Part shown: positions 858 through 52,815 of the stretch, in pieces
Position numbering within the stretch: position 1 is the stretch's first letter
Layout: each line of letters begins with the position of its first letter
DNA from: Methylococcales bacterium
GTDB lineage: Bacteria > Pseudomonadota > Gammaproteobacteria > Methylococcales > Methylomonadaceae
Direction: 5' to 3'
Length of the DNA: 64,000 nucleotides
NCBI GenBank assembly: GCA_003584875.1
Contig: QVQD01000200.1
Coordinates: 824-64,823, forward strand
Made by a program: the position numbers and the translations under genes
The notes under the pieces: model-generated
Database searches by the model: none
Told to the model about the DNA's origin: nothing
What the model saw: only the letters and a program-made list of their open reading frames with translations

Positions 858-1427
858 ATGAACATTCAAACATGGCTACAAGCCAAATATTTACCTATCT
901 CGCTTATTGCCCTGATGGTTTTGACGCGATTTGAACATTTTGGTGGTGCTTTGCATCTTCCAGATGCCTCTTTAGCCGTGTTCTTTTTTGCTGGTCTTTT
1001 TCGTAAAAAAGCTTTGTTATTATTTCTATTGGCCCTGGCGGCTTTAATTGATGTGGCTGCTATTCAAAATGGAACGAGTAGTTACTGTCTCTCGCCGGCT
1101 TATGTATTTTTGATCCCTACTTATAGTGTTATGTTTTTTGCCGGTCAATATTGTGCGAAATTTAAATCATTAAGTTTAAGTTCATTAAGCATTCAACTTA
1201 GCGCTGTATGGGTTTCGGCTAGTGTTGCCTTCGGTATTTCAAATTACAGCTTTTATTTATTCGCGGGTTTATTTGACGACTTAACTTTGAGTCAGTACGC
1301 GGGACGTGTTACTCAGTTTTATATGCCTTATGTTAGTTCTGTAATGCTGTATGCTGGGTTGTTCTATGCTTTAATGCTTTTAGTTAAGCTTATATCAGCA
1401 CTAAAAACTAATCAAAAGCCTGCTTAA
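858..1427 (+). CDS. Hypothetical polytopic inner-membrane protein (189 aa)
   Basis: Long ORF with about 5-6 hydrophobic segments. I recognise no family motif. Confidence 0.55.
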   Translation: MNIQTWLQAKYLPISLIALMVLTRFEHFGGALHLPDASLAVFFFAGLFRKKALLLFLLALAALIDVAAIQNGTSSYCLSPAYVFLIPTYSVMFFAGQYCAKFKSLSLSSLSIQLSAVWVSASVAFGISNYSFYLFAGLFDDLTLSQYAGRVTQFYMPYVSSVMLYAGLFYALMLLVKLISALKTNQKPA

Positions 1428-1907: not shown

Positions 1908-2912
1908 TTGGATGTCACAAGGAAACCAAGACAGCGTGCAATTTATGGGGGTTACTCCTCAGGTATGCACAGCATGAATAATTTAAGTTTTCACGCTATC
2001 AAACACGATTTTGGCATTGATGAATTGGTCATCAAACTCCGTGAGTTGCGTGAGCAATCTTTAGAAATTAGGCAGCGCAAAGATAGTCCACCTAAGTTAC
2101 CTTCGCGAAAAGAATTACAAGTCATCATCGACGGATTGGGTGCCGTGCTGTTCCCTAATCGCTTGGGCTCGCCAGATTTAAATGATGAAGGTATTGATTA
2201 TTTTGTCGGATTGACTCTCGATACGCTGTGCCGTGAACTTCACAAACAAATCCGCCGTGAATTGCAATTTGTTTCGGGTCATGCGGAGCCAGATGATGGT
2301 GCTTATGAGCAATCCGTTGCAATTACAGCTGAATTTGTAAAGCGTTTACCTGAAATAAGAGCGTTATTAGACACGGATATACAATCGGCTTACCAAGGTG
2401 ATCCGGCTGCGCGCAGTCCTGATGAAGTTCTAGTTTGTTATCCTGGCATTACCTCTATTTTGCATCATCGTTTTGCTCATGTTTTATATCAATTGGGTGC
2501 GCCACTGGTCGCTCGGATGATTTCAGAGTTAGCGCATTCAGCTACGGGTATTGATATTCATCCCGGTGCGACTATCGATCAAAGTTTTTTTATAGATCAC
2601 GGCACAGGTGTTGTTATCGGTGAAACCGCCATCATAGGTAAGCGTGTGCGTGTCTATCAAGCGGTTACATTAGGTGCTAAACGTTTTCAGAAAGATGATA
2701 ACGGCATGTTGGTTAAAGGGAATGCAAGGCACCCTATCGTTGAAGATGATGTGGTCATTTATGCAGGTGCAACCATTTTAGGACGTATCACCATAGGCAC
2801 TGGCTCAACCATAGGTGGAAATGTCTGGTTAACTCATAGCGTAGCACCCTTCAGCAATATCACCCAGGCCAGTACGCGCAGTGAATTGTTTATTGATGGC
2901 GGTGGTATTTAA
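1908..2912 (+). CDS. cysE: Serine O-acetyltransferase (hexapeptide-repeat, long N-terminal form); the true start is probably ATG 1965 or 1974
   Basis: The C-terminal half has the SAT/left-handed beta-helix signature DIHPGATIDQSFFIDHGTGVVIGETAIIGKRVRVYQAVTLGA. The track start at 1908 is a TTG with a poorly spaced SD. Confidence 0.85.
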   Translation: MDVTRKPRQRAIYGGYSSGMHSMNNLSFHAIKHDFGIDELVIKLRELREQSLEIRQRKDSPPKLPSRKELQVIIDGLGAVLFPNRLGSPDLNDEGIDYFVGLTLDTLCRELHKQIRRELQFVSGHAEPDDGAYEQSVAITAEFVKRLPEIRALLDTDIQSAYQGDPAARSPDEVLVCYPGITSILHHRFAHVLYQLGAPLVARMISELAHSATGIDIHPGATIDQSFFIDHGTGVVIGETAIIGKRVRVYQAVTLGAKRFQKDDNGMLVKGNARHPIVEDDVVIYAGATILGRITIGTGSTIGGNVWLTHSVAPFSNITQASTRSELFIDGGGI

Positions 2913-3173
2913 TTAAGTCGATTATGTATTGATGTAACGAAGTAGAGGCAATCGAACAGCCTTTTCTTTGGATATTTTCTAAAGGCTGCGCAAAAGAAAG
3001 TAATTCGCCCTCGGGTCACTGCCATTAAGTAAAGGATTGATTGCATCTACAAATACTTAAGTCAATGGTTGTGCGCCCTCGGGTTCGATTACCCGATTAA
3101 AAATTAATCGCGATAGCGATCTGATTAATTGTTTTTTAAAGCTACAACTGGCTGACTAATTTCTGTTTATAGC

Positions 3174-3251
3174 TAGGTCGGGTTAGTGACAGCGTAACCC
3201 GACATTTCGTAGCCTAATGTGTCGGGTTACGCTATCGCTAACCCGACCTAC
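3174..3251. repeat. REPIN (inverted pair of GTCGGGTTA-N9-TAACCCGAC REP elements)
   Basis: The sequence is taggtcgggttagtgacagcgtaacccgac ... gtcgggttacgctatcgctaacccgacctac. The same unit recurs at 34009, 42418, 46941 and 52737. Confidence 0.8.
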
Positions 3252-3300
3252 TTAACATTTTGTTTTAATCGTTCTTATGCTCTGGCATGAGAACTCAACT

Positions 3301-3320
3301 GGTAACACTTTGATGTTACC
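3301..3320. promoter_or_regulatory. Perfect palindrome GGTAACA-N6-TGTTACC ~55 bp upstream of the encapsulin start; candidate operator
   Basis: Read directly from the sequence. It lies between the REPIN and the shell gene's SD (AGGAAA). No regulator has been identified. Confidence 0.3.
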
Positions 3321-3373
3321 AAAGCGTCGTAGTATTTTTATTCACACATTATTCACTAAAATAGGAAAAAAAC

Positions 3374-4291
3374 ATGTCAGATATCCATGAAGCAAATACC
3401 GCATTAGGCGATGTTGCAGCACGTACCCTTGCCAATGCAACCAAAACCGTCCCTATGCTATCAACCATCAGCCCACGTTGGTTGGTGCATTTATTACAAT
3501 GGAAACCACTAGAAGCCGGTATTTATAGAGTCAATAAAGTTAAGAATGTCGGTGATCTTCATGTTGATTGTTCTAGCCTTGATGAGAAAGAACTGCCACA
3601 AACTTTCGTTGATTATGAAGAATGGGGTCGTGAATATCGATTGAATGCAGTGAATACTGTGTTGGACGTGCATACCCGTATTTCTGATTTATATAGTAGC
3701 CCACATAACCAAATTCATGAACAACTCCGTTTAACTATAGAAACCATTAAAGAGCGTCAAGAAAGTGAGCTCATTAATAATGCTGAATATGGTTTGTTGA
3801 ACAATGTCGCACCGGGTTTTAAAGTACAACCACGTACGGGTGCGCCTACACCTGATGATATGGATGAGTTGATTTCACGCGTTTGGAAGGAGCCAGGATT
3901 TTTCTTAGCGCATCCTTTAGCGATCGCCGCTTTTGGTCGTGAATGTACTCGTCGCGGCGTGCCACCTGCTATTGTCACAATGTTTGGTTCACAATTCTTG
4001 ACTTGGCGCGGCTTACCTATCATTCCATCTGATAAGCTGAAAGTTGTTAATGGCAAAAGTAATATTTTGTTGTTACGTACCGGTGAAAGTCGTCAAGGTG
4101 TGGTAGGTCTTTATCAACCTAATTTGACTGGCGAACTTAGCATGGGACTTTCTGTGCGTTTTATGGGCATCAATCACAAAGCGATTGCCTCTTACTTAAT
4201 TTCATTGTATTGCTCAATAGCGGTGTTGACTGATGATGCGCTAGGCGTGCTCGAAAATGTCGAAGTGGGCAAGTACCATGAATACAAGTAA
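3374..4291 (+). CDS. Family 2A encapsulin shell protein (SrpI-like, HK97-fold nanocompartment)
   Basis: The 305-aa ORF contains DVAARTLANATKTVP, SPRWLVHLLQWKPLEAGIYRVNKV, DVHTRISDLYSSPHNQIHEQLRLTIE, PTPDDMDELISRVWKEP.FFLAHP.AIAAFGRECTRRGVPP and GLSVRFMGIN...SLYCSIAVLTDDAL. From memory these are near-identical in SrpI-type shells. The size implies there is no cNMP-binding insertion (2A rather than 2B). Flanking genes are cysE and an NTD-extended cysteine desulfurase. Confidence 0.85.
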   Translation: MSDIHEANTALGDVAARTLANATKTVPMLSTISPRWLVHLLQWKPLEAGIYRVNKVKNVGDLHVDCSSLDEKELPQTFVDYEEWGREYRLNAVNTVLDVHTRISDLYSSPHNQIHEQLRLTIETIKERQESELINNAEYGLLNNVAPGFKVQPRTGAPTPDDMDELISRVWKEPGFFLAHPLAIAAFGRECTRRGVPPAIVTMFGSQFLTWRGLPIIPSDKLKVVNGKSNILLLRTGESRQGVVGLYQPNLTGELSMGLSVRFMGINHKAIASYLISLYCSIAVLTDDALGVLENVEVGKYHEYK

Positions 4292-6293
4292 GGTTGAGCC
4301 GACTCATTTAGCACAGCAAGACTTTACTGAGCATGCCGCTTTACCCGATATTGAGCAAATAACAAAATTGGCTAATGAATTATTTACTGCCTTACCTTGT
4401 GATGGCTCAAGATTGGGTCAGGCCTCTAGTTTGATACCTAGTGGCTTGACGTCATCTACAGAGTCAGTGGCAAGTCAGCAGAATTTTGCTTTTCAAGGAG
4501 ATGCTGTGTTGCAAAAGTTTTTTGCAAAGTCAGCCTCTCCTTATCATCAAGTACCCGATAGTTTGGATACCAGCCCTGTATTCCCTGATAACTCAGCGAA
4601 TACCAGTGCTGGTTTAGCGAGTTTAGATAAATCTGTACTGGCAGGCATTTTACCCAATGATTTCGGCTTGCCTGATGAAGCCCAATTACAGCAATTATTG
4701 GTATCGCGTGTGTTCACTGGAAGCGGTGTTCCTAGTTTGGATGCCGTTGAACAGTTTTCTGCGCCTAGACCACAGGATTCTGATGCGCAGTTGCAAAAAT
4801 TATTTTCTGACAACGCGCCTGCAACAGAGCGTTTTTCTAGTAATGTGGCAGGTATACCAGAGCCTGCTCAGGTATATTCAGGATTTGATGCTAGCTTGAT
4901 TGCAGGGCTTTCACCTAAAGCTTATGGTCTGCCTGGTGAAGATGAGTTGCAGCAATTATTTGCAACGTCTCCAAAAACTCCTGTTAGTGCTAGTTCTGGT
5001 TCATCATTCTATTTTCTCGATGAAATCAAATCTGAAGGTTTTAATGCACCTGCGCTTAATTCGGGTCATCCGGCATTTGATGTGCAAGCGGTACGCCGTG
5101 ACTTTCCAATATTAAAGGAACGGGTTAATGGCCATCCTTTAGTTTGGTTTGACAATGCGGCCACTACACAAAAACCGCAATCAGTGATTGATAGAGTTTC
5201 GTATTTTTATGAACACGAAAATTCTAATATTCACCGTGCAGCTCATGAATTGGCGGCAAGGTCTACCGATGCTTATGAAAAAGCTAGGGATACCGTTGCG
5301 CATTTTATGAATGCCTCGTCTTCATCGGAGATAGTGTTTGCGCGTGGTACCACGGAAGCGATCAATTTAGTCGCTAAAAGTTGGGGTCAGCAAAATATCA
5401 AAGCGGGTGATGAGATCGTTGTAACTTGGTTAGAGCATCATGCCAATATTGTGCCTTGGAAACAGCTTTGTGACTTAACGGGTGCGACTTTGCGGGTAGT
5501 GCCTGTTGATGATGATGGTCAGGTGTTGTTAGGCGAATACCAAAAGTTGCTGACTGCGCGCACCAAGTTAGTGTCATTTACGCAGGTTTCTAATGCTTTA
5601 GGTACGGTTACGCCGGCTAAAGTAATGATCGACATGGCTCATCGCGTTGGCGCTAAAGTTCTGCTTGATGGCGCTCAGTCAGTGTCACATTTACGTGTGG
5701 ATGTTCAGGCGTTGGATTGTGATTGGTTTGTGTTCTCTGGACATAAAATCTTTGGTCCTACTGGTATTGGTGTGTTGTATGGTAAAGCCGTGTTATTGGA
5801 ATCCATGCCACCTTGGCAAGGCGGCGGCAATATGATTGAAGATGTGACTTTTGATAAAATCATCTATCAACCTGTGCCCGCTCGTTTTGAAGCCGGTACT
5901 GGCAATATCGCTGATGCAGTCGGTTTAGGCGCTGCTTTGGAATACGTGTCAAAAATAGGTATCGATAATATCGCCCGTTATGAACATGAATTGCTGGTGT
6001 ATGCGATGGAGGCACTGCGCAGTATTTCTGGCTTACGTTTGATTGGTACAGCGGCAGAAAAAACCAGTGTCTTATCTTTCGTGCTAGCAGGGCATAGCAA
6101 TCAAGATATCGGTGTCGCTTTAAACCGAGTGGGTATTGCTGTTCGTACTGGACACCATTGCGCACAACCGATTTTGCGTCGTTTTGGTCTAGAAAGCACA
6201 GTACGTCCCTCCTTAGCGTTTTACAACACTCACGACGAAGTTGATTTGCTCGTTAGTACAGTAAGACGCATTCAAAGCGGTAAGGATTTTTAG
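4257..6293 (+). CDS. Encapsulin cargo: SufS-like (class V) cysteine desulfurase with a ~270-aa disordered N-terminal loading domain; alternative start at ATG 4278
   Basis: The C-terminal ~400 aa has WFDNAATTQKP, HRAAHELA, the PLP lysine in FSGHKIFGPTGIGVLYG and the catalytic Cys in RTGHHCAQP. The N-terminal 270 aa is rich in P/S/A/Q/L, contains a KLANELF motif and has internal duplications. The ORF overlaps the shell gene stop by 14-35 nt. Confidence 0.85.
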   Translation: MSKWASTMNTSKVEPTHLAQQDFTEHAALPDIEQITKLANELFTALPCDGSRLGQASSLIPSGLTSSTESVASQQNFAFQGDAVLQKFFAKSASPYHQVPDSLDTSPVFPDNSANTSAGLASLDKSVLAGILPNDFGLPDEAQLQQLLVSRVFTGSGVPSLDAVEQFSAPRPQDSDAQLQKLFSDNAPATERFSSNVAGIPEPAQVYSGFDASLIAGLSPKAYGLPGEDELQQLFATSPKTPVSASSGSSFYFLDEIKSEGFNAPALNSGHPAFDVQAVRRDFPILKERVNGHPLVWFDNAATTQKPQSVIDRVSYFYEHENSNIHRAAHELAARSTDAYEKARDTVAHFMNASSSSEIVFARGTTEAINLVAKSWGQQNIKAGDEIVVTWLEHHANIVPWKQLCDLTGATLRVVPVDDDGQVLLGEYQKLLTARTKLVSFTQVSNALGTVTPAKVMIDMAHRVGAKVLLDGAQSVSHLRVDVQALDCDWFVFSGHKIFGPTGIGVLYGKAVLLESMPPWQGGGNMIEDVTFDKIIYQPVPARFEAGTGNIADAVGLGAALEYVSKIGIDNIARYEHELLVYAMEALRSISGLRLIGTAAEKTSVLSFVLAGHSNQDIGVALNRVGIAVRTGHHCAQPILRRFGLESTVRPSLAFYNTHDEVDLLVSTVRRIQSGKDF

Positions 6294-6307
6294 TTAGGTA
6301 ATCTTGC

Positions 6308-6332
6308 ATCGGGCACAGTTTGTGTGCCCGAT
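6308..6332 (+). terminator. Terminator-like hairpin after the desulfurase gene (ATCGGGCAC-N7-GTGCCCGAT, no U tract)
   Basis: Perfect 9-bp stem 15 nt after the stop codon. The lack of a T-run lowers confidence. Confidence 0.4.
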
Positions 6333-6401
6333 ATAGAGCATCAAGTATATATTTGCTAGCTCTGCTAATAAACCACTTATGCTAGCCAATGAAGCGCTTC
6401 A

Positions 6402-6611
6402 ATACAGGAATATAGGTTCAGCATACCAGTTTCTATAGTTCCGATACGGGAATTTCAGTCTGTGATACCGGAATGGATATTCTCGATACAGGATTAAGAC
6501 TTCGTTATACCAGAATCAATGGTTGAAGTATGGGGATTAGTATTCGACATACAAGAATCGATGGCGTCAATACAGGAATCAAAGCTCGTAATACAGGGTT
6601 TAGAGACTGTG
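6402..6611. repeat. Array of 10 direct repeats with exact 21-bp phasing; each unit has a conserved 10-nt core ATAC[ACG][AG]GAAT and an 11-nt variable segment
   Basis: Cores start at 6402, 6423, 6444, 6465, 6486, 6507, 6528 (degenerate), 6549, 6570 and 6591. Confidence 0.85.
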
Positions 6612-6695
6612 AAAGTATATTTGTGGGAGAGGCTTTAGCTTTGAATCCAAAGCTAAAATGAAAATCGCATTATCGTTATATGTCACTCCGGAGGG

Positions 6696-6896
6696 CATAG
6701 GTATCTACACAAGTTTCTTATCGGCGTGGAAACGATAAAAAACACCGTAGGGGCGTATTGCATACGCCCAACATCGACAGTCCATTGTTATAGAGCTTAT
6801 TTTATAAGGGCGTATGCAATACGCCCCTACGATCTTTACCACAATGTTATCGTTCTCGCCTGGGAATGCTAACAATTAATTGTGCAGATACCTATG
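6696..6896. mobile_element. MITE-like element, copy A (201 bp; 17-bp TIR CATAGGTATCTACACAA; internal GTAGGGGCGTATTGCATACGCCC REPIN)
   Basis: The terminal inverted repeats and nearly the whole element are self-complementary. Near-identical copies are at 6906-7107 and 45144-45344. Confidence 0.75.
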
Positions 6897-6905
6897 GCTA
6901 AAGAG

Positions 6906-7107
6906 CATAGGTATCTAAACAGGTTTCTTATCGGCGTGGAAACGATAAAAAACACCGTAGGGGCGTATTGCATACGCACATTTAATGAAAGTCTATATGT
7001 TATAGAGCATATTTTATAAGGGCGTATGCAATACGCCCCTACGATCTTCACCACAATGTTTTCGTTCTCGCGTGGGAATGCTAACCATTATTTTTTAGAT
7101 ACCTATG
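6906..7107. mobile_element. MITE-like element, copy B, in tandem with copy A (9-bp spacer)
   Basis: Same architecture as copy A with a few substitutions. The ORFs at 6869-7054(-) and 7026-7223(+) lie inside the repeats. Confidence 0.75.
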
Positions 7108-7219
7108 CCGTAGGAATAGGTCGCGACCTGTACCTACATTACGATTGGCCTCCAGCTTTAGATCGACATCTACTTATTCATAGCCACAGCAGGCTATTTC
7201 CTGAAAGTTTTAGGGAGGT

Positions 7220-8050
7220 CTAATTAGATGGGTCTTCATAAAAAGATCCTTGCACAAGATTAAAGCCGGTGCTTTCTGCTAGTTTTGCATCGCTATCTTG
7301 ATCAATCTGCAATAGGATGCTTTGTCCTCCGTCTATTTCAATTCGTGCATTTAAATCACGTAATTTTTTAGCTAAAGTTTCATCGCTTTGTTGATGAAGC
7401 GATTTAGCCGATAAGCTAACATAATAGGGTGATAGCTGGGTAATAAGATCAAACGATTGTTTATCCTGTGCGACATAATCAAACTTGAGCGCAATTTTAT
7501 AACCACGAATCCGGTAATTTAGGAGTCCAGCAATGAGGGCAGGATAGTGTTTGGCATAAGGACTACTGACAGTCATAGTAATGACGATGTTTTTGGTTTC
7601 TAAGCCGCAATGGTTGATCACTTCTTCAAAATAAGCGCCGTGATCTTTTTTAATGCCGAGTATGTGGCGTGGATCAACTTCAAGAAATAATGAGTTCTGT
7701 AAATGTGTTAGAGGTAAATAATTAAGCATGTGCGTAGTGCGAGATAAGCGATCAAAATCAATAATTGATTCGAAATTATTATCTTGATGAGCTCGATGAC
7801 TTAGTAAGTTTTCTATCTCGTCTGAATACAGGTATTGAACTTCATGAGTTGATACCTTGAGTTTGGCAGCATGGCCGATAATTTCATTAGGCTTTTGAGC
7901 AAGGCGTATGGGTAAAAAGAGACTGCTGATTTTGATTTGTCCAAAGAGAGTGCTGATCACTTGATTTTCTAGTAGAAAAGGGCGAAAACTCGAGTGATGT
8001 TCCTGTCCAAAGCGGTCGTTAAAATAATCAGCTAAATTTTGTAAGGGCAT
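7220..8050 (-). CDS. Stand-alone degenerate EAL-like domain protein (catalytic motifs lost)
   Basis: Colinear with EAL landmarks but diverged at each one. LPI..IIGHAAKL stands for QPI..GxEALxR, LFLEV for the VN.S strand, ITMTV for ExTE, GYKIALKFDY for G..ALDDFG, and a C-terminal FNLVQGSFYEDP for QGYxFxxP. Confidence 0.5.
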   Translation of the reverse strand: MPLQNLADYFNDRFGQEHHSSFRPFLLENQVISTLFGQIKISSLFLPIRLAQKPNEIIGHAAKLKVSTHEVQYLYSDEIENLLSHRAHQDNNFESIIDFDRLSRTTHMLNYLPLTHLQNSLFLEVDPRHILGIKKDHGAYFEEVINHCGLETKNIVITMTVSSPYAKHYPALIAGLLNYRIRGYKIALKFDYVAQDKQSFDLITQLSPYYVSLSAKSLHQQSDETLAKKLRDLNARIEIDGGQSILLQIDQDSDAKLAESTGFNLVQGSFYEDPSN

Positions 8051-8792: not shown

Positions 8793-10041
8793 ATGGATTT
8801 TTTTAATTACCGCAACAACGAGCTTTATGCCGAAGATGTGGCTGTGCAAGACATTTGTACTCAATATGGCAGCCCTTGTTATATCTATTCAAGAGCCACC
8901 TTGGAGCGACATTGGTTAGCTTTTGATCGGGCTTTTACGGGTCATGCTCATTTGATTTGTTATGCCGTAAAAGCCAATTCAAATATTGCGCTGCTTAATG
9001 TTTTAGCTCGCTTAGGTTCTGGCTTTGATATCGTTTCTTTAGGTGAGTTACAGCGAGTACTAGCTGCAGGTGGCGACCCTAAGAAAATTGTATTTTCTGG
9101 GGTAGGTAAGCGTGAAGATGAGATTTTAGCAGCCTTAAAAATAGGCATACGTTGCTTTAATGTAGAAGTGATCGATGAACTGGATAGAATCAATAGACTC
9201 GCTGGTGAGCTGGGTGTGATTGCTCCGGTTTCTTTTCGAGTGAATCCAGATGTCGATGCCAATACCCATCCTTATATTTCTACCGGCTTAAAGGAAAATA
9301 AATTTGGTATCGATATTACCCTAGCATTGGCTGAATATAAACGCGCTACACAGATGTCGAATATTGAGGTGGTCGGTATCGATTGTCATATTGGTTCTCA
9401 ATTGACAGAAACACGACCCTTTTTAGATGCCTTGGATAAAGTGCTTGATTTAGTCTCTGCACTAAAAGCTGAGGGTATAGACTTAAAGCATTTGGATTTG
9501 GGGGGGTGGCTTAGGTATTCGTTATAACGACGAGCAGCCGCCGGAGCCTGCTGATTATATTGCTGCGGTTTTAGAACGCTTGGGCGAGACTGATTTTGAG
9601 ATTTTATTGGAGCCAGGACGTGCAATTGTCGGTAATGCCGGTATTTTAGTAACCCAAGTTGAATATCTAAAACCTACCGAGCATAAGAACTTTGCTATTG
9701 TTGATGCGGCTATGAATGATCTGGTTCGTCCCTCATTATATAGTGCATGGCAGGCGATTATTCCAGTTAAGCTTGAAAGTGATGCTCCTGAGTTGCAATG
9801 GGATATTGTTGGCCCAGTTTGTGAAACCGGTGATTTCCTAGGTAAGAATCGTGCTCTTAAGTTGGCAGTTGGCGATTTGTTGGCGATACGCTCATCGGGT
9901 GCTTATGGCTTTTCTATGAGCTCTAATTATAACTCTAGACCTAGAGTGCCTGAACTTATGGTTGATGGTGATCAGACCTATTTAATCAGAGAAAGAGAAA
10001 GCATTGAGCAACTTTGGTCTGGTGAGCATTTATTGCCATGA
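8793..10041 (+). pseudogene. lysA: Diaminopimelate decarboxylase LysA, reading frame broken by one extra G in a G7 run (9500-9506); possibly a homopolymer sequencing error
   Basis: ORFs 8793-9527 and 9580-10041 are the N- and C-terminal parts of one LysA (YAVKANS PLP site; EPGRAIVGNAG; CETGD). With six Gs the text reads DLGGGLGIRYNDEQPPEPADYIAAVLERLGETDFEILLEPGRA, which joins the two parts. Confidence 0.9.
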
Positions 10042-10865
10042 TACATTTCACTAAAATGCAGGGCTTGGGCAATGATTTTGTGGTGATAGATGCCATTAAT
10101 CAAGTCATTAATTTAAGTGCTGAACAAATTCGTTTTATGGCTGACAGGCATTTTGGTATTGGCTTTGATCAGCTTTTGCTGGTTGAAAAACCAGTTAGTG
10201 CAAATGCTGCTTTCAAATATAGAATTTTTAATGCCGATGGTAGTGAAGTTTCTCAATGTGGCAATGGTGCAAGATGCTTTGCTAGATTCGTTCGCGATAA
10301 AGACTTATCAGATCAAAATGATATTTGCGTGGATACCAATGCCGGTCAATTGATTTTGAGCTTTACTGACGATGATTTAATTACTGTCAATATGGGGGTT
10401 CCTAAGCATTTACCTTCAGAAATTCCGTTGCTTTTTGCACACGAAGCTTTGAATTATGAAGTGACTATTAATGGTGTTAAGCATGTTTTTGCTGCAGTTT
10501 CAATGGGTAATCCTCATGCAGTGTTAGTGGTTGATGATGTAAGCAATACGCCAGTGGCTGAGTGGGGTAGGGCATTAGAAAGTCATGAATTATTTCCAGA
10601 GCGTGCAAATATAGGCTTTATGCAAGTCATTGATCGTCAGCATATAAAATTGCGCGTCTATGAGCGAGGAGCAGCTGAAACGCTGGCTTGCGGTAGCGGT
10701 GCTTGTGGCGCTGTAGTCATAGGTGTTTTACAAAATTGTCTAGACCCAGAGGTTAATGTTGAATTGCCTGGTGGTCAGTTAGTTATCAATTGGGCAGGGC
10801 GAGGTGAGGCCGTATTAATGACTGGATCAGCGAGCTCTGTTTTTGATGGAATTATTGATTTATGA
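10038..10865 (+). CDS. dapF: Diaminopimelate epimerase
   Basis: Contains MQGLGNDFVVID and two catalytic Cys contexts (SQCGNGARC, ACGSGACG). There is an ATGA overlap with lysA. Confidence 0.95.
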   Translation: MIHFTKMQGLGNDFVVIDAINQVINLSAEQIRFMADRHFGIGFDQLLLVEKPVSANAAFKYRIFNADGSEVSQCGNGARCFARFVRDKDLSDQNDICVDTNAGQLILSFTDDDLITVNMGVPKHLPSEIPLLFAHEALNYEVTINGVKHVFAAVSMGNPHAVLVVDDVSNTPVAEWGRALESHELFPERANIGFMQVIDRQHIKLRVYERGAAETLACGSGACGAVVIGVLQNCLDPEVNVELPGGQLVINWAGRGEAVLMTGSASSVFDGIIDL

Positions 10866-11554
10866 GTAAGAAAAGTACCCAAGTAAGTGCAGATCAAGTC
10901 GCAGAATACTTACAACAATATCCCGATTTTTTCCATGAGCATTTAAATCTATTAGAAGATTTGAATATTCCTCATCCGAGTGGCACAGCAACTTCTTTAA
11001 TACTCAAGCAAGTTGAGTTACTAAGGACTAAGCATCAAGATTTAGAATATCAACTCAATGAATTATTAGAGATTGCAAGAAATAACGATGCTTCTTTTAT
11101 TCGTATGCACAAGCTAACATTGGCTTTGCTTGAGGCATCAACACTTGCAGAGGTCGTCACTAATCTTAATATTGTTATGGCAGAATATTTTCTAACTGAT
11201 TTTGTGGCTGTACGTATAGTTAAAGAGGTTACTAATCCAAGTATTAGTAATTTGTTTATAGAACCAAACAGTGAGAATTTAAAACCTTTTTTAAAGGTAT
11301 TGGCTAGCAATCAACCTAAATGTGGTCGGGCTACTTTAGCTCAAGCTAAAGTTTTGTTTGGTGATGCGGCAACTGAAGTAAAGTCTTGTGCCATCATCCC
11401 GATGAACTTTACGGAACTTGATGGTATTTTGGCGATTGGCAGTCGAAATGAAGATAGGTTTCATCATAGTATGGGGAATTTGTTTTTAACACAGATGAGT
11501 GAAATTATAGGTACTCGATTTATTGCTCTGTTAAATAAAGCGAATGTTGGCTGA
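10862..11554 (+). CDS. yigA: DUF484 (YigA) family protein
   Basis: N-terminal VAEYLQQYPDFF. It occupies the conserved dapF-yigA-xerC position. Confidence 0.8.
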   Translation: MSKKSTQVSADQVAEYLQQYPDFFHEHLNLLEDLNIPHPSGTATSLILKQVELLRTKHQDLEYQLNELLEIARNNDASFIRMHKLTLALLEASTLAEVVTNLNIVMAEYFLTDFVAVRIVKEVTNPSISNLFIEPNSENLKPFLKVLASNQPKCGRATLAQAKVLFGDAATEVKSCAIIPMNFTELDGILAIGSRNEDRFHHSMGNLFLTQMSEIIGTRFIALLNKANVG

Positions 11555-12449
11555 TCAGGAGTCGTTGTTAGTCAATTTTTTAGAGCAATTGACAGTAGAA
11601 AAACGCTCTTCTAGCCATACGGTTGCAAATTATCAAAGAGACATTCGCCGTTTACAAAATTTTTGTAGCAGTAAAGCTATAGAGCAATGGTCGGCAGTTA
11701 CGCAGAATGATATTAGGTCTCATATAGCCAGTAGGCATCGACAAGGTATAGGCAGTAGTAGTCTGCAAAGAGAGTTGTCAGCCATACGCAGTTTTTATGG
11801 TTATTTGTTGAAACAAAGATGTGCAGAGATTAATCCAGCTCAATATGTAAAAGCCCCTAAACAAATCAAGAAATTACCTAAAACAATGGATGTTGATCAA
11901 GTTAAAGGCTTGTTAGAGGCAGGAAGTAGTTCAATACTTGAAGTGAGAGATTTGGCTATGTTTGAGCTGTTTTACTCGTCAGGTCTGCGCTTAAGTGAAT
12001 TGGCGGCTCTTAATGTTGAAGATGTTGATTTGCAAGATCAATCTTTAGTAGTCCGTTCAGGGAAAGGTGGAAAGTCAAGATTATTACCTGTAGGAACCAA
12101 AGCAATAGGAGCCATTAATCTTTGGTTGCAACAACGAATAAAATCAGCCACTACTGAGTCGGCTTTATTTATAACGTCGACAGGAAAACGTCTTGGTCAA
12201 CGAAGTATCGAGTTGCGCTTAGAGTTGTGGTGCAAGAAAAAAGGCATTGCAGAGCACATTCATCCCCATATGCTTAGGCATTCTTTTGCTAGTCATTTGC
12301 TTGAGGCGAGTCAGGATTTAAGGGCTGTGCAGGAGTTGCTTGGACATAGTAATATTTCGACAACACAGATATATACCCATCTTGATTTCCAGCATTTAGC
12401 TGAGGTCTACGATAATGCCCATCCACGAGCAAAAAAAAAACCAGAATAG
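11544..12449 (+). CDS. xerC: Tyrosine recombinase XerC
   Basis: Contains SSGLRLSEL, HMLRHSFASHLL and LLGHSNISTTQIYTHL, plus synteny. There is an A10 run at 12431-12440 in the last codons. Confidence 0.9.
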   Translation: MLADQESLLVNFLEQLTVEKRSSSHTVANYQRDIRRLQNFCSSKAIEQWSAVTQNDIRSHIASRHRQGIGSSSLQRELSAIRSFYGYLLKQRCAEINPAQYVKAPKQIKKLPKTMDVDQVKGLLEAGSSSILEVRDLAMFELFYSSGLRLSELAALNVEDVDLQDQSLVVRSGKGGKSRLLPVGTKAIGAINLWLQQRIKSATTESALFITSTGKRLGQRSIELRLELWCKKKGIAEHIHPHMLRHSFASHLLEASQDLRAVQELLGHSNISTTQIYTHLDFQHLAEVYDNAHPRAKKKPE

Positions 12450-12557
12450 CATTGCCTTGTTAGGCAAAAACATTAAAAATCTGCTAACATGTCACCTATT
12501 TTTTATATAAAAGTAGTCTGTTTTTATCAGAGATAACCTTAATACAGGATAGCGGAA

Positions 12558-13685
12558 ATGGCAGCAAGCGATACATTGGATGAAGGAAAATCTAAAGGGA
12601 TACTTTGGGGCTTTGGTATGCTTACCTTGGTGGTTCTCATTGTGCTTCTAATATTGGGTGCTTGGTGGGGTAGTGAACCTGGTCAGTTTAATATATTAGA
12701 AGAGGCTCACAAACGATCAGAAGAATCAAAATTAGAAAGTGAACATGGTGGTCATGGCGGTGGTCATGGCTCTGCACCTGCGGAAGAAGCACATAAGTCA
12801 GCAGAAGAGGGGCATAAGCCTGCCGAAGAGCTTGATATTTCTGAGATGCCTATCGGTTATGTCTATACGAACACCTTGGCTCATATCGCCGAGGTTCTTT
12901 TGCATAAGAGTGGCGGTTATATTACTAATGACGTTGCACCTCCTGGTGTATTTCTAGATAACATATCAAATTGGGAATATGGTGCTTTGGTTATGTTGCG
13001 CGATGCGACAACTGCACTTAGAAACCACTTTGCTAGGGATCAATCACAATCAGCAGAAGATCCTGATTTAGCAATTGCAGAGCCTTATTTTTATTATGAA
13101 CATAATTCCTGGGCTTTACCGTCAACCGAAGCTGAATATCAAAAAGGTATAGAGGCTTTACATAAATATATGACGCGTTTGCAAAAATATGGTGGCCCTG
13201 TTAAAAAAGCTCAGTTTTATTCTAGGGCTGATAATTTATGGCAGTACACCGAGGTCGTTATTAAGCGTTTAGGTGGATTATCTACTCGTTTAACGGCTAA
13301 TAGTGCGGGTGGAAATTATGGCCCAGGGCTTTCTGATATTGAGAAATTAGCCGCTGATGAAAAAGGTACGCCCATTACTAAAGTATCTTGGCTAGAGATA
13401 GACGATATTTTCTATGAAGCTCGTGGAGCTAGTTGGGCTTTATTGCATATACTCAGGGCGATTAAACACGATTTCGCCGATATTTTGTTAGATAAACGTG
13501 CTATGCGTACCGTTGATATTATGATTAAGGCGATGGAAAATGCTTTGACGCCAATTTTAAGCCCGATGATTTTAGATGGTAGTGGTTATGGTTTATTTGC
13601 TAACTATTCATTAACTATGGCAAATTATATATCTAGGGCTAATGCTGCAGCACTCGATTTACGTGACATTATGAATAGGGGTTAA
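12558..13685 (+). CDS. Membrane-anchored conserved hypothetical protein (possibly DUF2333 family) with a His/Gly-rich insert
   Basis: It has an N-terminal TM helix, then SEHGGHGGGHGSAPAEEAHKSAEEGHKPAEE. The PPGVFLDNISNWEYGALVMLRD segment resembles what I recall of DUF2333. The family assignment is unverified. Confidence 0.45.
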   Translation: MAASDTLDEGKSKGILWGFGMLTLVVLIVLLILGAWWGSEPGQFNILEEAHKRSEESKLESEHGGHGGGHGSAPAEEAHKSAEEGHKPAEELDISEMPIGYVYTNTLAHIAEVLLHKSGGYITNDVAPPGVFLDNISNWEYGALVMLRDATTALRNHFARDQSQSAEDPDLAIAEPYFYYEHNSWALPSTEAEYQKGIEALHKYMTRLQKYGGPVKKAQFYSRADNLWQYTEVVIKRLGGLSTRLTANSAGGNYGPGLSDIEKLAADEKGTPITKVSWLEIDDIFYEARGASWALLHILRAIKHDFADILLDKRAMRTVDIMIKAMENALTPILSPMILDGSGYGLFANYSLTMANYISRANAAALDLRDIMNRG

Positions 13686-13998: not shown

Positions 13999-14078
13999 CA
14001 CCGTAGGGGCGTATTGCATACGCCCTTATAAAAGTAGGGGCGTATTGCATACGCCCTTATAAAATAAGCTCTATTACA
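13999..14078. repeat. Rearranged fragment of the 201-bp MITE (two direct GTAGGGGCGTATTGCATACGCCC REPs plus part of the central region)
   Basis: The sequence caccgtaggggcgtattgcatacgcccttataaaa gtaggggcgtattgcatacgcccttataaaataagctctat matches the MITE's interior. Confidence 0.6.
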
Positions 14079-14161
14079 TTAACTTTCCTAAATGGGTTTA
14101 GCTTATTTGCCACTGAAGATAAATTTCTTTTCCCCAGTCTGTAACTTAAAAGCGGGGATAT

Positions 14162-29083: not shown

Positions 29084-31462
29084 TTAATGAAAGTTAGAAA
29101 ATGTAATATTATGGCCTGCAGCAACTGTTACTCCTGTTAGTTCAATTGCAGAAAAAACACCAGCTGTATCTATTATTTTCCAAACATGATTGCTTGTTGA
29201 AGCCGCACTTGCACCCGTTTCTATGAGTAACTCTATGCCGCTACCTGTTGCAATGGCAAATTTATTGGTAGCTTGTGTATTTGAAAATAGCGCTGCTGCA
29301 CTCGCTGCTGTTAGTGCAGTACCTGCATTAGCATAGTTAAAAACTAAGCCTGTAGAATTAGCTGCTAAAGGAGCATTATTTGTTGCAAGTGTGGTTTTAT
29401 TTTGCAGCGTAAGGCCTGCTAAGGCATTGCCAGTTGCAGTAACGTTAAGTATGTCAGTAACGCTACCTGTTGAGCTGCCAAAGCCTGTGATTGTTACTTT
29501 GTTGTTATTAACCAGATAAATAGTATCTGCATTGGTATGTGTGCCTAAAGCGATGCTATCAGAACCACCGCCACCATTAATAGTTAATCCTCCACTAGTA
29601 TTGCCATTGATGGTGTCATTCTTAATAGAGCCTGTAATACTGGTTGTGCCATTGCCTGTCGCATTAATTGTCCAGCCACTAGTGCCTGCTGCGGCGCCAA
29701 CATTAACATTAAAGCCATTTGTATTGATGGTTGCAGCACTTGCAGTGGTTGCAGCATTTGATGTGCTAGCGGTTGCGATCCAAGAAGCCGCTAAGGTTGA
29801 AACGGAAGACCCACCTAAAGCTATTTTAACTATGTCCGCTCCACCATTGCCTAAATCAGTAATAGTATCAATTCCAGAAATATTAAATGTATCAATACCA
29901 GCGCCACCAGTCAAAGTAGCTTGACTATTAGCTTTGTCAAAAAGGCTGTCAGCCGCTGAAGTGCCCGTAACGTTTAAACTAATAGTGCCTGAAATTTTAG
30001 ATAATAATGCGTTATCTGCCAATGATTGTAGTGCAGTTATGGCTAAAGCACTGCCAATATTACTTTGGGTAATGCTGGTGATTTTTGCAATATTGTTCTG
30101 CAAAGTGTCTAAATTAGAGGCTATGTTAGCGCCAGTGTCGGTTACGGTCATAGAGCTAACATGGGTGTTTGCTGCTGTTGTTGCAACTGTAGCACTAGTG
30201 ACCCCAGAAACAGTTAAGGTATAGCTACCGCTTATTTTATTTAAGGCTGTGGCGTCAGCAGTAAGTTGAGACGCAGTTATAGCTAATGCAGTTGCTGTTC
30301 CGCTTTGAGTGATGCTAGAGATTTTGATGTTATTAGTTTGTAGTGCATCAAGGTTCAGAGCTATGTTTGCAGAAGTGTCAGTAATTGCAAAACTACTTGA
30401 GCTAAGGCTAGCAAGGTTACTAATAAAAGTGGCTATGCTTCCAGTGCTTGGAATTGGGGTAGGTGTCGAGCTTGTTGATTTTATGGTAAAGCCAAGTGCA
30501 TCTAGTTGTTGAAGATCAACTTTAGATAGCGCTTGAACTGTTGAGCCATTATAGAATTCATCAAAGGGGTCAGTGCTACCTTGTACTCCAGTATTTAGGA
30601 AGTCACTGGGGTCAGAGTTTTTACCATAGTCGGCTATTTTAGTTTTTCCACCATCTAAAGAAAAATAAGCCGATGCAGAAGGAATGGCGCTACTAAATAG
30701 AAGAGTTCCTGTTGAGCTGTAGCGAAATAAATCGAATATGTCTGGAGTTGGGCCATAAGGTACTCTACCCAGTGCATGGGTTAATTCATGCAATGCGACA
30801 CCAGGGAGTAAGCTAGGGTTGATGTCGGTAGCAAATATTGCTTGACCGTCAGTGGCTGTGGATGGCGCTAAACCCCAAAGTTTAAGCTGGGCTTCAAATA
30901 CTAATACTTGTGATTGCCCCTGTATAGTCGTTCCGGATGGAAGGCCGTTGAAGGTTGTGTCACCTGAGGCAGCATGGCTTTTTAAATTCGCAACAACGGT
31001 AGAGTAGGCTAGGGTGGTGCCGTTAGTGGGTCCTGCACCTGCGCCACCCCCGGTTCCAGTATAAGAAATGTTAATATTTAGAACGACCTTATTCGATAGG
31101 GCATCGCAGAGCATTTGAGCGGCTTTTATAATGCCAGCTTGAAAGGTTGCCGGTGCGCCACTTACGTTGCTGCCCCAGACTAAATTGATTTGCAAGCCTC
31201 CGGCAGTTCCTACTAAAGTAGGAGTTGGAGTTGTTGAGGCTAGGGAAAGAGCAGGTAGAGTGGATGACGAGTTGCTGGTCGAAGATGTGGCCAGCCAAAT
31301 AGGGTTTGAGTAGTCACTATAAGCCTGTGATGTTGAAAGATTAGCTCTATATTGAGAGGGACTGGATACCGAAAGGTTGCTATTTGCAACTGGACTTAAA
31401 TAGTCCTGTGTGTCATCTGTACTATTTGTTTTTGAGCTAACTAATAAATTTGTTGTTTTCAT
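29084..31462 (-). CDS. Large secreted HExxH zinc-metalloprotease-domain protein with two ~80-aa tandem modules and RTX-like Gly/Asp repeats (792 aa, no N-terminal signal peptide)
   Basis: Contains VALHELTHALG (aa 222-232), DLFRY and YFSLDGG. The duplicated module is (I/V)TDT.ANIA.NLD.LQ.N..KI.SITQS...ALAIT..Q......L.KISG...L.V.G at aa ~359 and ~439. Also present are LTGGAGIDTF, LGNGGADIV and INGGGGSDSI. The N-terminus is polar (MKTTNLLVSSKTNSTDDTQD). Confidence 0.7.
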   Translation of the reverse strand: MKTTNLLVSSKTNSTDDTQDYLSPVANSNLSVSSPSQYRANLSTSQAYSDYSNPIWLATSSTSNSSSTLPALSLASTTPTPTLVGTAGGLQINLVWGSNVSGAPATFQAGIIKAAQMLCDALSNKVVLNINISYTGTGGGAGAGPTNGTTLAYSTVVANLKSHAASGDTTFNGLPSGTTIQGQSQVLVFEAQLKLWGLAPSTATDGQAIFATDINPSLLPGVALHELTHALGRVPYGPTPDIFDLFRYSSTGTLLFSSAIPSASAYFSLDGGKTKIADYGKNSDPSDFLNTGVQGSTDPFDEFYNGSTVQALSKVDLQQLDALGFTIKSTSSTPTPIPSTGSIATFISNLASLSSSSFAITDTSANIALNLDALQTNNIKISSITQSGTATALAITASQLTADATALNKISGSYTLTVSGVTSATVATTAANTHVSSMTVTDTGANIASNLDTLQNNIAKITSITQSNIGSALAITALQSLADNALLSKISGTISLNVTGTSAADSLFDKANSQATLTGGAGIDTFNISGIDTITDLGNGGADIVKIALGGSSVSTLAASWIATASTSNAATTASAATINTNGFNVNVGAAAGTSGWTINATGNGTTSITGSIKNDTINGNTSGGLTINGGGGSDSIALGTHTNADTIYLVNNNKVTITGFGSSTGSVTDILNVTATGNALAGLTLQNKTTLATNNAPLAANSTGLVFNYANAGTALTAASAAALFSNTQATNKFAIATGSGIELLIETGASAASTSNHVWKIIDTAGVFSAIELTGVTVAAGHNITFSNFH

Positions 31463-33856: not shown

Positions 33857-34008
33857 GTATTGAGATTCAATGTTATTTGCGGCAGGTTAATGATAGATTA
33901 TCATAATAATGTTGATTGAGTAGTTGCTAGAGTTATTCGTTTAATTATGGGTTTTTGAATCCAAATAATGTGCAAAGCTAAAGCTGTTCGATATTAGTAA
34001 GCTATTTT

Positions 34009-34039
34009 GTCGGGTTACGCTATCGCTTACCTGACCTAC
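34009..34039. repeat. Solo REP (GTCGGGTTACGCTATCGCTTACCTGACCTAC), followed by a (TTTAAC)n hexamer microsatellite at 34041-34068
   Basis: Read directly from the sequence. Confidence 0.7.
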
Positions 34040-42417: not shown

Positions 42418-42448
42418 GTAGGTCGGGTTAGCGATAGCGTAACCCGAC
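42418..42448. repeat. Solo REP GTAGGTCGGGTTAGCGATAGCGTAACCCGAC
   Basis: Canonical family member: 9-bp stem, 9-nt loop, GTAG head. Confidence 0.8.
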
Positions 42449-42461
42449 AACGTTCGATGAT

Positions 42462-45079: not shown

Positions 45080-45143
45080 AAAGGACAATAAATCTACATA
45101 GATTCTGTAAATGTCGGGACAGGTTGCGCACTGTCCCACAGGG

Positions 45144-45344
45144 CATAGGTATCTACACAAGTTTCTTATCGGCGTGGAAACGATAAAAATCACCGTAGGG
45201 GCGTATTGCATACGCCCAACATTGAAAGTCCAATGTTATAGAGCTTATTTTATAAGGGCGTATGCAATACGCCCCTACGATCTTCACCACAAAGTTATCG
45301 TTCGCGCGTGGAAATGCTAACAATTAATTGTGTAGATATCTATG
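45144..45344. mobile_element. MITE-like element, copy C (201 bp)
   Basis: Near-identical to 6696-6896. The track ORF 45111-45320 lies inside it. Confidence 0.75.
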
Positions 45345-46906: not shown

Positions 46907-46940
46907 ATATGACTAGCAACTAAATGCGCGAAAATATTGT

Positions 46941-47014
46941 GTAGTTCGGGTTAGCGATAGCGTAACCCGACACATTACGATTATTTCGGGTTACGCTATC
47001 GCTAACCCGACCAC
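46941..47014. repeat. REPIN (inverted pair of the GTCGGGTTA..TAACCCGAC REP)
   Basis: The sequence is gtagttcgggttagcgatagcgtaacccgac ... ttcgggttacgctatcgctaacccgacc. Confidence 0.8.
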
Positions 47015-47050
47015 CTAAAAACTTACACATGATAATTAACCTTTCGTGGA

Positions 47051-52736: not shown

Positions 52737-52815
52737 GTAGGTCGGGTTAGCGATAGCGTAACCCGACTTTTCGTTGGTGATTTTGTCGGGTTACCCTATC
52801 GCTAACCCAACCTAC
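52737..52815. repeat. REPIN (inverted REP pair)
   Basis: The sequence is gtaggtcgggttagcgatagcgtaacccgac ... gtcgggttaccctatcgctaacccaacctac. Confidence 0.8.

Follow-up and report, generated by a model that had tools for sequence, protein, structure and literature searches.

The closest described relatives of the locus reported here are the desulfurase encapsulins of Synechococcus elongatus PCC 7942 (SrpI/CyD; PDB 6x8m and 6x8t; Nichols et al. 2021, PMC8049743) and Acinetobacter baumannii 118362 (PDB 8t6r; Benisch et al. 2024, PMC10836720). Homologous shells are T=1 icosahedra of 60 HK97-fold subunits, ∼24 nm across, and homologous systems have been reported to be induced ∼10-fold by sulfur limitation, to form a 24-nm shell, and to store elemental sulfur in a desulfurase-dependent manner (PMC10836720). 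In SrpI-type systems, the N-terminal domain of the desulfurase is both necessary and sufficient for loading (PMC8049743). The family counts 1,462 catalogued operons in 11 phyla, and four operon types have been published, among them AT-Enc-CD (acetyltransferase, encapsulin, cysteine desulfurase) (PMC10836720). Here, we analyzed a 64,000-nucleotide stretch of contig QVQD01000200.1 from a Methylococcales bacterium (the window), in which a serine O-acetyltransferase gene, a Family 2A encapsulin shell gene and a cargo desulfurase gene follow one another on the plus strand. Very probably, these genes form an intact, chromosomal three-gene AT-Enc-CD desulfurase-encapsulin (Family 2A) system of a freshwater methane-oxidiser.

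The shell gene (SrpI-like, HK97 fold) occupies positions 3374-4291 on the plus strand, with its stop codon at 4289-4291, and encodes 305 amino acids (aa). A first-pass annotation of the window had placed three plus-strand open reading frames (ORFs) here and had quoted SrpI-type strings from the second; we recovered the ORFs at these positions and found the strings in the translation. It had also suggested a profile search as a check on the shell assignment. In this search, the protein scored 344.8 bits against Pfam PF19307 (SrpI-like; cutoff, 22.8; E=2.8e-103) and 523.1 bits against NCBIfam NF041162, the equivalog model for family 2A shells (encap_f2a; cutoff, 380; E=1.6e-157), with an alignment spanning shell residues 11-304 and model positions 1-295. 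The SrpI structure 6x8m was matched with E=4e-150, 223 of the 298 aligned residues being identical (74.8%), and the identity to the A. baumannii shell 8t6r was 71.3%. Given these identities to solved shells, the HK97 fold can be regarded as established by homology, and the Family 2A assignment of the first-pass annotation is upheld. PDB shells deposited as "Major membrane protein I," which we take to be a mycobacterial name, also matched (9ksl, 8wol, and 8won, at ∼1e-124 to 1e-130), more weakly than SrpI or the A. baumannii shell. By analogy with the homologous shells, we infer self-assembly into a ∼24-nm T=1 icosahedron.

Family 2B shells carry a cyclic nucleotide monophosphate (cNMP)-binding insertion domain, and this is the basis of the 2A/2B definition (PMC10836720). 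The Family 2B model NF041163 aligned to our protein only over its C-terminal positions 213-449, which correspond to shell residues 63-299, and a Pfam scan of the 305-aa protein found no cNMP-binding domain. Since the 2B model covers the C-terminal core only and the insertion is lacking, the sequence identifies the protein as a Family 2A encapsulin shell by the published definition. The comparison with solved Family 2B structures (9bje, 9bhu, and 9bix; terpene cyclase cargo) agrees with this: they share a common HK97-type shell core with the window protein but are 470-477 aa long and were matched only over their C-terminal parts.

The third gene was called mechanically as an ORF of 678 aa at 4257-6293 on the plus strand. 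Its start is most likely the ATG at 4278, because this start is used by gene callers on metagenome contigs and yields the 671-aa protein deposited at NCBI. The catalytic domain (5052-6293, plus strand) scored 479 bits against Pfam Aminotran_5, and the protein exceeded the cutoffs of both the NCBIfam SufS subfamily model (567.8 bits; cutoff, 475) and the dedicated cargo model NF041166 (f2_encap_cargo1; 897.7 bits; cutoff, 800), whose alignment begins at residue 20 of the 678-aa ORF. The closest solved match to the catalytic domain was PDB 8kg1 (E=3.9e-185, 620 bits), followed by E. coli SufS/CsdB entries at ∼1e-134 to 1e-136. The first-pass annotation had read this C-terminal part as a SufS-like desulfurase with SGHK and GHHCAQP motifs, a reading borne out by alignment to the solved group II cysteine desulfurases 8kg1 and 6c9e, in which both motifs are conserved. 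In the 671-aa protein, SGHK lies at aa 487-490 (its Lys at nucleotides [nt] 5745-5747) and GHHCAQP at aa 625-631 (its Cys at nt 6159-6161). From what is understood of SufS, we take this Lys to bind the pyridoxal phosphate (PLP) cofactor and this Cys to form the persulfide. The domain can therefore be described as a group II (SufS-type) PLP-dependent cysteine desulfurase.

The first ∼258 aa of the cargo (4278-5051, plus strand) form a putative cargo-loading domain that is predicted to be disordered. This region had no Pfam domain match, is rich in Ser, Ala, Leu, Pro, Gln, and Asp, lacks Trp, and contains 65% disorder-promoting residues versus 50% in the catalytic domain. It had been described as ∼270 aa of low complexity; the compositional bias is there, over ∼258 aa, but strict low complexity is not, because the domain holds conserved short motifs. 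These are ITKLANELF (aa 28-36, nt 4359-4385, plus strand) and FYFLD (aa 244-248, nt 5007-5021, plus strand), together with a GLP-x-E-x-ELQQL repeat of ∼24 aa present in two copies (aa 118-141 and 205-228) that are identical at 12 of 24 residues. In an alignment of the N-terminal domain with 71 relatives, conservation peaked at PDV..L.RLANELF, where the window's ITKLANELF falls, at LP...EL..LL and at FYFLD, and collapsed elsewhere. ITKLANELF and FYFLD correspond to the motifs "LARLANEFFS" and "AASPYYFLDG" published for SrpI-associated desulfurases (PMC8049743), and the A. baumannii cargo-loading domain, of ∼225 residues, likewise carries short conserved motifs (PMC10836720). SrpI/CyD thus resembles the window system in its SufS-type cargo, in a disordered N-terminal domain with both motif types and in its sulfur-metabolism setting; the duplicated GLP..ELQQL motif distinguishes the window protein. 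By analogy, the desulfurase would be physically encapsulated via its N-terminal domain.

Upstream of the shell gene, on the same strand, a mechanical ORF of 334 aa starts from TTG at 1908 and ends at 2912. The gene most likely starts at ATG 1974, giving a cysE/EpsC-type protein of 312 aa (1974-2912), since the gene callers that chose the cargo start on metagenome contigs use this acetyltransferase start as well. The exact 312-aa protein is present in public collections, and its 90%-identity cluster there has members annotated as serine O-acetyltransferase (EpsC). It matched Pfam Hexapep (E=4e-9) and the NCBIfam EpsC-type model NF041874 (161.3 bits, above the cutoff of 150), fell below the cutoff of the canonical cysE model TIGR01172 (164.9 bits; cutoff, 210.65) and contains a GIDIHPGA motif. 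The upstream hexapeptide serine O-acetyltransferase reported by the first-pass annotation is thereby confirmed, as is its statement that the window holds no rhodanese: none was found in window ORFs of ≥90 aa (Pfam, E≤1e-4). Nor did the gene clusters that recur in the 80 closest loci include a rhodanese, some of these clusters having been judged by eye and not by profile search. With an acetyltransferase gene directly ahead of the shell gene in the same orientation and without a rhodanese, the operon matches, as far as its sequence tells, the published AT-Enc-CD type. The A. baumannii system shares a gammaproteobacterial host and the AT, Enc, and CD genes but differs in having a four-gene operon with a rhodanese first (R-AT-Enc-CD). 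Together, the comparisons support all testable parts of the earlier proposal of an intact Family 2A operon comprising cysE, a shell, and an N-terminally extended cysteine desulfurase.

To compare the locus with its relatives, we used a reference set of one genome per GTDB species, with context counts made on the 80 closest loci; loci carry L numbers, L001-L005 being a sister lineage and L006 a near-identical contig. Over 14 kb, the window is 99.93% identical to this contig, L006 (ENA contig ERZ27313618:k141_466405). The shell protein is 100% identical to that of the sister lineage. Codon changes in the shell gene numbered 38 synonymous and 0 non-synonymous versus L001, and 112 synonymous and 16 non-synonymous versus L007; versus L001, there were 25 synonymous and 3 non-synonymous changes in the acetyltransferase gene and 70 synonymous and 5 non-synonymous changes in the catalytic domain. 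Because synonymous changes far exceed non-synonymous ones (the DNA being 94-97% identical to L001 within these genes), all three genes are under strong purifying selection. The cargo N-terminal domain evolves fast, with 84-87% identity to L001-L005 compared with 98-99% for the catalytic domain. Shell and cargo genes overlap by 35 nt counted from ATG 4257 or by 14 nt from ATG 4278, and a ribosome-binding site, AGGAA (3363-3367, plus strand), lies 7 nt before the shell ATG. AGGAA is the only conserved block upstream of the shell start among 11 Methylococcaceae loci, and its AGGA core is invariant. The gene overlap and the conserved ribosome-binding site would fit a coupled expression of shell and cargo.

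Relatives of the system are encoded in at least 591 matched reference-genome stretches. Among the matches listed, the nearest shells belong to Methylococcaceae, Methylobacter, and Methyloglobulus (91-95% identity), followed by Methylovulum and other Methylococcales (82-86%) and then by Nitrosomonas, Methylophilaceae, and Gallionellaceae (∼78-83%). The identical shell is indexed in 86 metagenome-collection blocks, and we read 23 contigs that contain it. The cysE-shell-cargo trio is kept in nearly all of the 80 reference loci, and a cysE relative adjoins the shell gene in 68 loci outside the window's own lineage. Recurrent neighbors are sbp, cysT/W, cysA, a CysB-like LysR gene, cysK, an AlgE-type porin, DUF2325, and an EAL-domain protein; in 54 of the 80 loci, the stretch in view includes sulfate ABC-transporter genes. 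In L001-L005, cysE is immediately preceded by cysTWA-LysR-TonB receptor-189-aa protein, in this order. A published neighborhood table of Family 2A systems lists the same transporter and LysR families, with a rhodanese in 48.7% of cases (PMC8049743 supplement). The rhodanese-free AT-Enc-CD arrangement, embedded in sulfate-uptake clusters, is the norm across Methylococcales and neighboring methylotroph and nitrifier lineages, and this setting fits a sulfur-starvation role in sulfate-poor fresh water.

The remainder of the window consists of core housekeeping genes (xerC, lipAB, mreBCD, gatCAB, an NAD-linked formate dehydrogenase cluster, ccm genes, and others), which places the locus on the chromosome. 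In S. elongatus, srpI is presumably plasmid-borne (pANL). The window system thus differs from SrpI/CyD both in its host, a gammaproteobacterial member of the Methylococcales, and in its chromosomal position between housekeeping genes. The operon has a guanine-plus-cytosine (GC) fraction of 0.434 versus 0.400 in the remaining window, a gap too small to argue from, and we did not retain the idea of a recent horizontal acquisition based on composition.

Exact copies of the cargo and shell proteins have been deposited from a Methylococcales bacterium metagenome-assembled genome (MAG), the cargo as "cysteine desulfurase" (RIZ65248.1) and the shell as "hypothetical protein D0531_10400" (RIZ65247.1). 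The first-pass remark that such shells are routinely left as hypothetical proteins is accurate for RIZ65247.1 but does not apply in general, as PF19307, NF041162, and NF041166 ("exception") now score such proteins above their cutoffs. The MAG record could be re-annotated accordingly. Acinetobacter baumannii is, by its GC content, an AT-rich gammaproteobacterium. The further remark that the system is essentially unstudied in AT-rich gammaproteobacteria did not stand, since the best-characterised system after SrpI is that of A. baumannii 118362 (PMC10836720). The system is apparently unstudied in Methylococcales methanotrophs: in the literature searched on encapsulins and methanotrophs, the two terms met only in passing. 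As an encapsulin, the locus adds little to a family that is widespread, catalogued, structurally solved, and recognized by curated models. Methylobacter tundripaludum SV96 (locus L009, with the gene order cysK-cysE-shell-cargo), whose shell is 95% identical to that of the window, offers a culturable test organism.

By analogy with the homologues, the system may work as follows. Sulfur limitation would induce the operon, probably via a CysB-type LysR regulator; we propose such a regulator because the sister lineage and most relatives have its gene, as well as sulfate ABC-transporter genes, flanking the operon. The shell would then assemble around the desulfurase, which would be tethered to the inner shell surface by the short motifs of its disordered N-terminal domain. 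The encapsulated enzyme would convert L-cysteine to L-alanine, and the freed sulfur would accumulate in the shell in elemental or polysulfide form, shielded from cellular reductants. The co-encoded serine O-acetyltransferase would supply O-acetylserine, the cysteine precursor. As no rhodanese is linked to the operon here, stored sulfur would need small thiols, or a sulfurtransferase encoded elsewhere, for its release.

We found nothing at odds with the identification itself, and some points qualify the picture. Whether such compartments store or relay sulfur is still debated even for the model systems. The window contains no sulfate ABC-transporter, LysR, cysK, DUF2325, or porin genes, the only match being the generic ABC ATPase ccmA, which leaves just the cysE-shell-cargo trio in this strain; as a sulfate transporter, a LysR regulator, cysK, and a rhodanese are all missing from it, the regulation outlined above is borrowed from the relatives. 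No conserved promoter or LysR box was detected in 150 nt aligned upstream of the shell gene from the 11 Methylococcaceae loci. In addition, the spacer between cysE and the shell gene (2913-3373, plus strand) measures 461 nt versus 172 nt in the sister lineage, and ∼344 nt of it (2913-3256) are absent from L001-L005 (blastn against L001/L003). A palindromic intergenic repeat in this spacer (∼3165-3261) would give a hairpin of ∼31 bp as RNA; the RNA fold reached −151.4 kcal/mol versus a shuffle mean of −103.3 (z=−8). An insertion with such a strong hairpin may uncouple the transcription of cysE from that of the shell gene.

The main rival keeps the compartment and changes its task: it would serve as a gated sulfur-mobilisation or relay device in starvation, stripping sulfur from scarce cysteine and handing it to selected acceptors, or else as a buffer against cysteine or redox stress. 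The first role proposed for SrpI, a sulfate-starvation-induced protein, was of this kind (PMC8049743), and Benisch et al. call the remobilisation of stored sulfur unresolved (PMC10836720). The linkage of the operon to sulfate-uptake genes in relatives likewise points to a starvation response and not to the storage of a surplus. However, neither a rhodanese nor another acceptor is linked to the operon here or appears among the recurrent clusters of the 80 closest loci, and elemental sulfur inside the homologous A. baumannii shell has been directly shown (PMC10836720). We consider a role other than storage possible but on the whole unlikely, relay and storage being in any case compatible with each other.

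Two readings would dissolve the system altogether. The shell gene might be a leftover prophage capsid gene that adjoins a housekeeping SufS gene by chance, as could be suggested by one source labeling the identical protein "Phage capsid-like protein" and by the HK97 fold that encapsulins share with phage capsids (PMC10836720). Yet no phage genes flank the locus, which lies among core housekeeping genes, and the window contains no sufBCDE genes. The shell's 523 bits on the Family 2A model and 74.8% identity to SrpI, the desulfurase score above the dedicated cargo-model cutoff and its loading motifs, and the conservation of the shell-desulfurase gene pair across two proteobacterial classes effectively refute this explanation, to which we attach hardly any credence. 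Alternatively, the locus might be decaying or transcriptionally uncoupled, repeats having inserted between cysE and the shell gene and 3′ of the cargo gene and the sulfate-transporter and LysR genes having been lost. The 344-nt insertion with its 31-bp hairpin upstream of the shell gene, the absence from the window of the sister lineage's adjacent sulfate-ABC and LysR genes, and the split cargo gene of L002 and cargo fragment of L089 all speak for decay. On the other hand, the three ORFs are full length, and non-synonymous changes relative to the sister lineage make up only 0 of 38 in the shell, 3 of 28 in the acetyltransferase, and 5 of 75 in the catalytic domain; we rejected a pseudogene reading. 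The ribosome-binding site and overlapping start are also intact, and a promoter-like site, TTAACA-18-TATGCT (3252-3281), lies between the hairpin and the shell gene. This site is weak (9 of 12 matches, by consensus only), and the promoter and terminator scan returned fewer promoter-like sites than shuffled sequence did, none of them trustworthy. We regard decay or uncoupling as highly improbable, and an intact desulfurase encapsulin as the best explanation of the locus. A scan of the whole window with Rfam at gathering thresholds returned nothing, including any known riboswitch or leader upstream of cysE or of the shell gene.

Convergent with the cargo gene, at 7220-8050 on the minus strand, lies a gene for a stand-alone 276-aa protein deposited as hypothetical, which appears to have a degenerate EAL fold. 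It reached 21.4 bits against Pfam EAL, below the cutoff of 31.3, and a direct PDB sequence search with it gave no match. Its homologues are mostly Methylobacter proteins labeled EAL-domain, and relatives of 59-87% identity have precomputed PF00563 hits. An AlphaFold2 model was of modest quality (predicted local distance difference test [pLDDT], 63; predicted template modeling score [pTM], 0.62); with it, Foldseek returned EAL domains as 50 of the 50 top PDB matches, the best being YkuI (E=7.6e-8; template modeling [TM] score, 0.43), with TM scores of ∼0.4-0.5. In these matches, the predicted fold pairs exclusively with EAL domains, of the YkuI type and others. A betaproteobacterial relative from a related locus scored 131 bits on Pfam EAL and matched YkuI with E=4.8e-14. 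Aligning the protein with YkuI and the betaproteobacterial copies allowed the catalytic and metal-binding residues of EAL phosphodiesterases (E of EAL, N, ExxE, DD, K, E, and Q) to be compared. Where E, ExxE, and K are expected, the window protein has GHAAKLK, VITMT, and VSLS. It has thus lost the glutamate of EAL, both acidic residues of ExxE, and the lysine of KxD, three positions that the aligned Methylophilaceae copies keep. Judged by these residues, the protein is catalytically dead and should not be called a phosphodiesterase; it differs from known EAL domains in standing alone, without a sensor or GGDEF domain and without the catalytic residues.

Of the 80 shell-anchored loci, 30 have a stand-alone EAL relative, and its immediate neighbor is nearly always sbp, cysT/W, DUF2325, the shell, the cargo, or cysE. 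Such relatives recur in sulfate-ABC/encapsulin clusters of Methylococcales, Nitrosomonas, Methylophilaceae, and Ferriphaselus (observed among loci L007, L013, L025, L030-L077, and L087-L089), often with a DUF2325 gene alongside. In contexts anchored on the EAL gene, it stood tail-to-tail with the cargo gene or a cargo remnant in three of four cases. In Betaproteobacteria, the gene lies between sbp and cysT, often paired with a DUF2325 protein, and for this reason it appears to belong to the sulfate-uptake cluster rather than to serve the encapsulin specifically. The order porin-sbp-DUF2325-EAL-(shell-cargo)-cysT-cysW-cysA-cysE is conserved in Nitrosomonas (L031, L036, L040, L047, and L051) and Methylophilaceae (L034, L050, and L054), so that the encapsulin pair sits inside the sulfate ABC-transporter operon; some Nitrosomonas loci have two tandem EAL paralogues. 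It is conceivable, though we would not expect it, that proteins of this EAL subfamily help to regulate the sulfate-starvation/desulfurase-encapsulin cluster of methylotrophic and nitrifying Proteobacteria, coupling second-messenger or protein-protein signaling to sulfate uptake and encapsulin expression; our reserve comes from the fact that shared ancestry and whole-cluster transfer could explain much of the synteny. The association of EAL proteins with encapsulins was not found in the main texts of the key encapsulin papers or in the published Family 2A neighborhood table; in the part of the Andreas and Giessen supplement available to us, "EAL" concerns DyP-type encapsulin systems only, and the literature searched on EAL domains, sulfate starvation, and cysteine gave no match. 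The recurrent EAL-fold and DUF2325 neighbors provide a testable lead on the regulation of the compartment and of sulfate uptake.

A 189-aa hydrophobic protein is encoded upstream of the operon (858-1427, plus strand), with no Pfam hit and a single NCBIfam hit far below cutoff. Its gene is always upstream of cysE in L001-L006 and absent from the 80 other loci, which makes it lineage specific. We did not count this membrane protein as an operon member because it has no family match and is confined to the window's own lineage. Some related contigs carry broken encapsulin genes: L002 has a split cargo gene (10905-12834), L088 several frameshifted genes (9176-12071), and L089, beside the EAL gene, only a 265-aa Aminotran_5 fragment (8987-9784). 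These could reflect real decay or assembly errors.

The palindromic repeat of the cysE-shell spacer belongs to a family of intergenic elements of ∼80-97 nt, TAGGTCGGGTTAG...CTAACCCGACCTA, which resemble repetitive extragenic palindromes (REP) or miniature inverted-repeat transposable elements (MITE). Further copies lie at 46931-47022 and 52738-52815 and partial ones at 42418-42449 and 33994-34039. On the other side of the operon, 15 nt past the cargo stop, a GC-rich hairpin with a 10-bp stem (ATCGGGCACA / TGTGCCCGAT; 6308-6332, plus strand) may act as a terminator or as an RNA-stabilising element; it is not followed by a T-run and was for that reason not listed by the terminator scan. The region 3′ of the cargo gene (926 nt, 6294-7219) is variable. 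The window holds repeats only; in the sister lineage, a ∼4-kb restriction-modification and toxin-antitoxin island occupies this position (L001, 12930-17135), with ParDE, a MazE-like gene, and gene fragments of the restriction-modification families EcoEI_R_C and Methylase_S. In the window, ten 21-nt units form a non-coding array at 6402-6611 (plus strand), between the cargo and EAL-like genes; they share a conserved core, ATAC[ACG]GGAAT, and vary in the remainder. Seven cores stand at exact multiples of 21 nt, and the array was missed by Tandem Repeats Finder; it resembles an iteron or protein-binding array and was seen only in the window and in L006. It is followed by two copies (6692-6896 and 6902-7107) of a ∼205- to 212-nt dispersed or tandem repeat with GGGCGTATGCAATACGCCCCTAC-type palindromes, which recurs at 45140-45344 and as fragments at 14002-14094. 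This repeat gives rise to spurious "MQYAPT / AYCIRPY" ORFs, and copies are also present in the L001-L005 contigs.

Elsewhere in the window, lysA (8793-10041) is split into ORFs of 244 and 153 aa by an extra G at 9506-9512. The run counts seven G residues in the window versus six in L006, where an intact gene encodes 415 aa, so the split probably stems from a homopolymer error of the assembly and not from a genuine loss of the gene. Finally, a 792-aa ORF at 29084-31462 on the minus strand had no Pfam hit, and ∼470 of its residues had no family match at all, but NCBIfam recognized residues 106-325 as a metalloprotease domain of the NF038122 family (86.1 bits; cutoff, 80).

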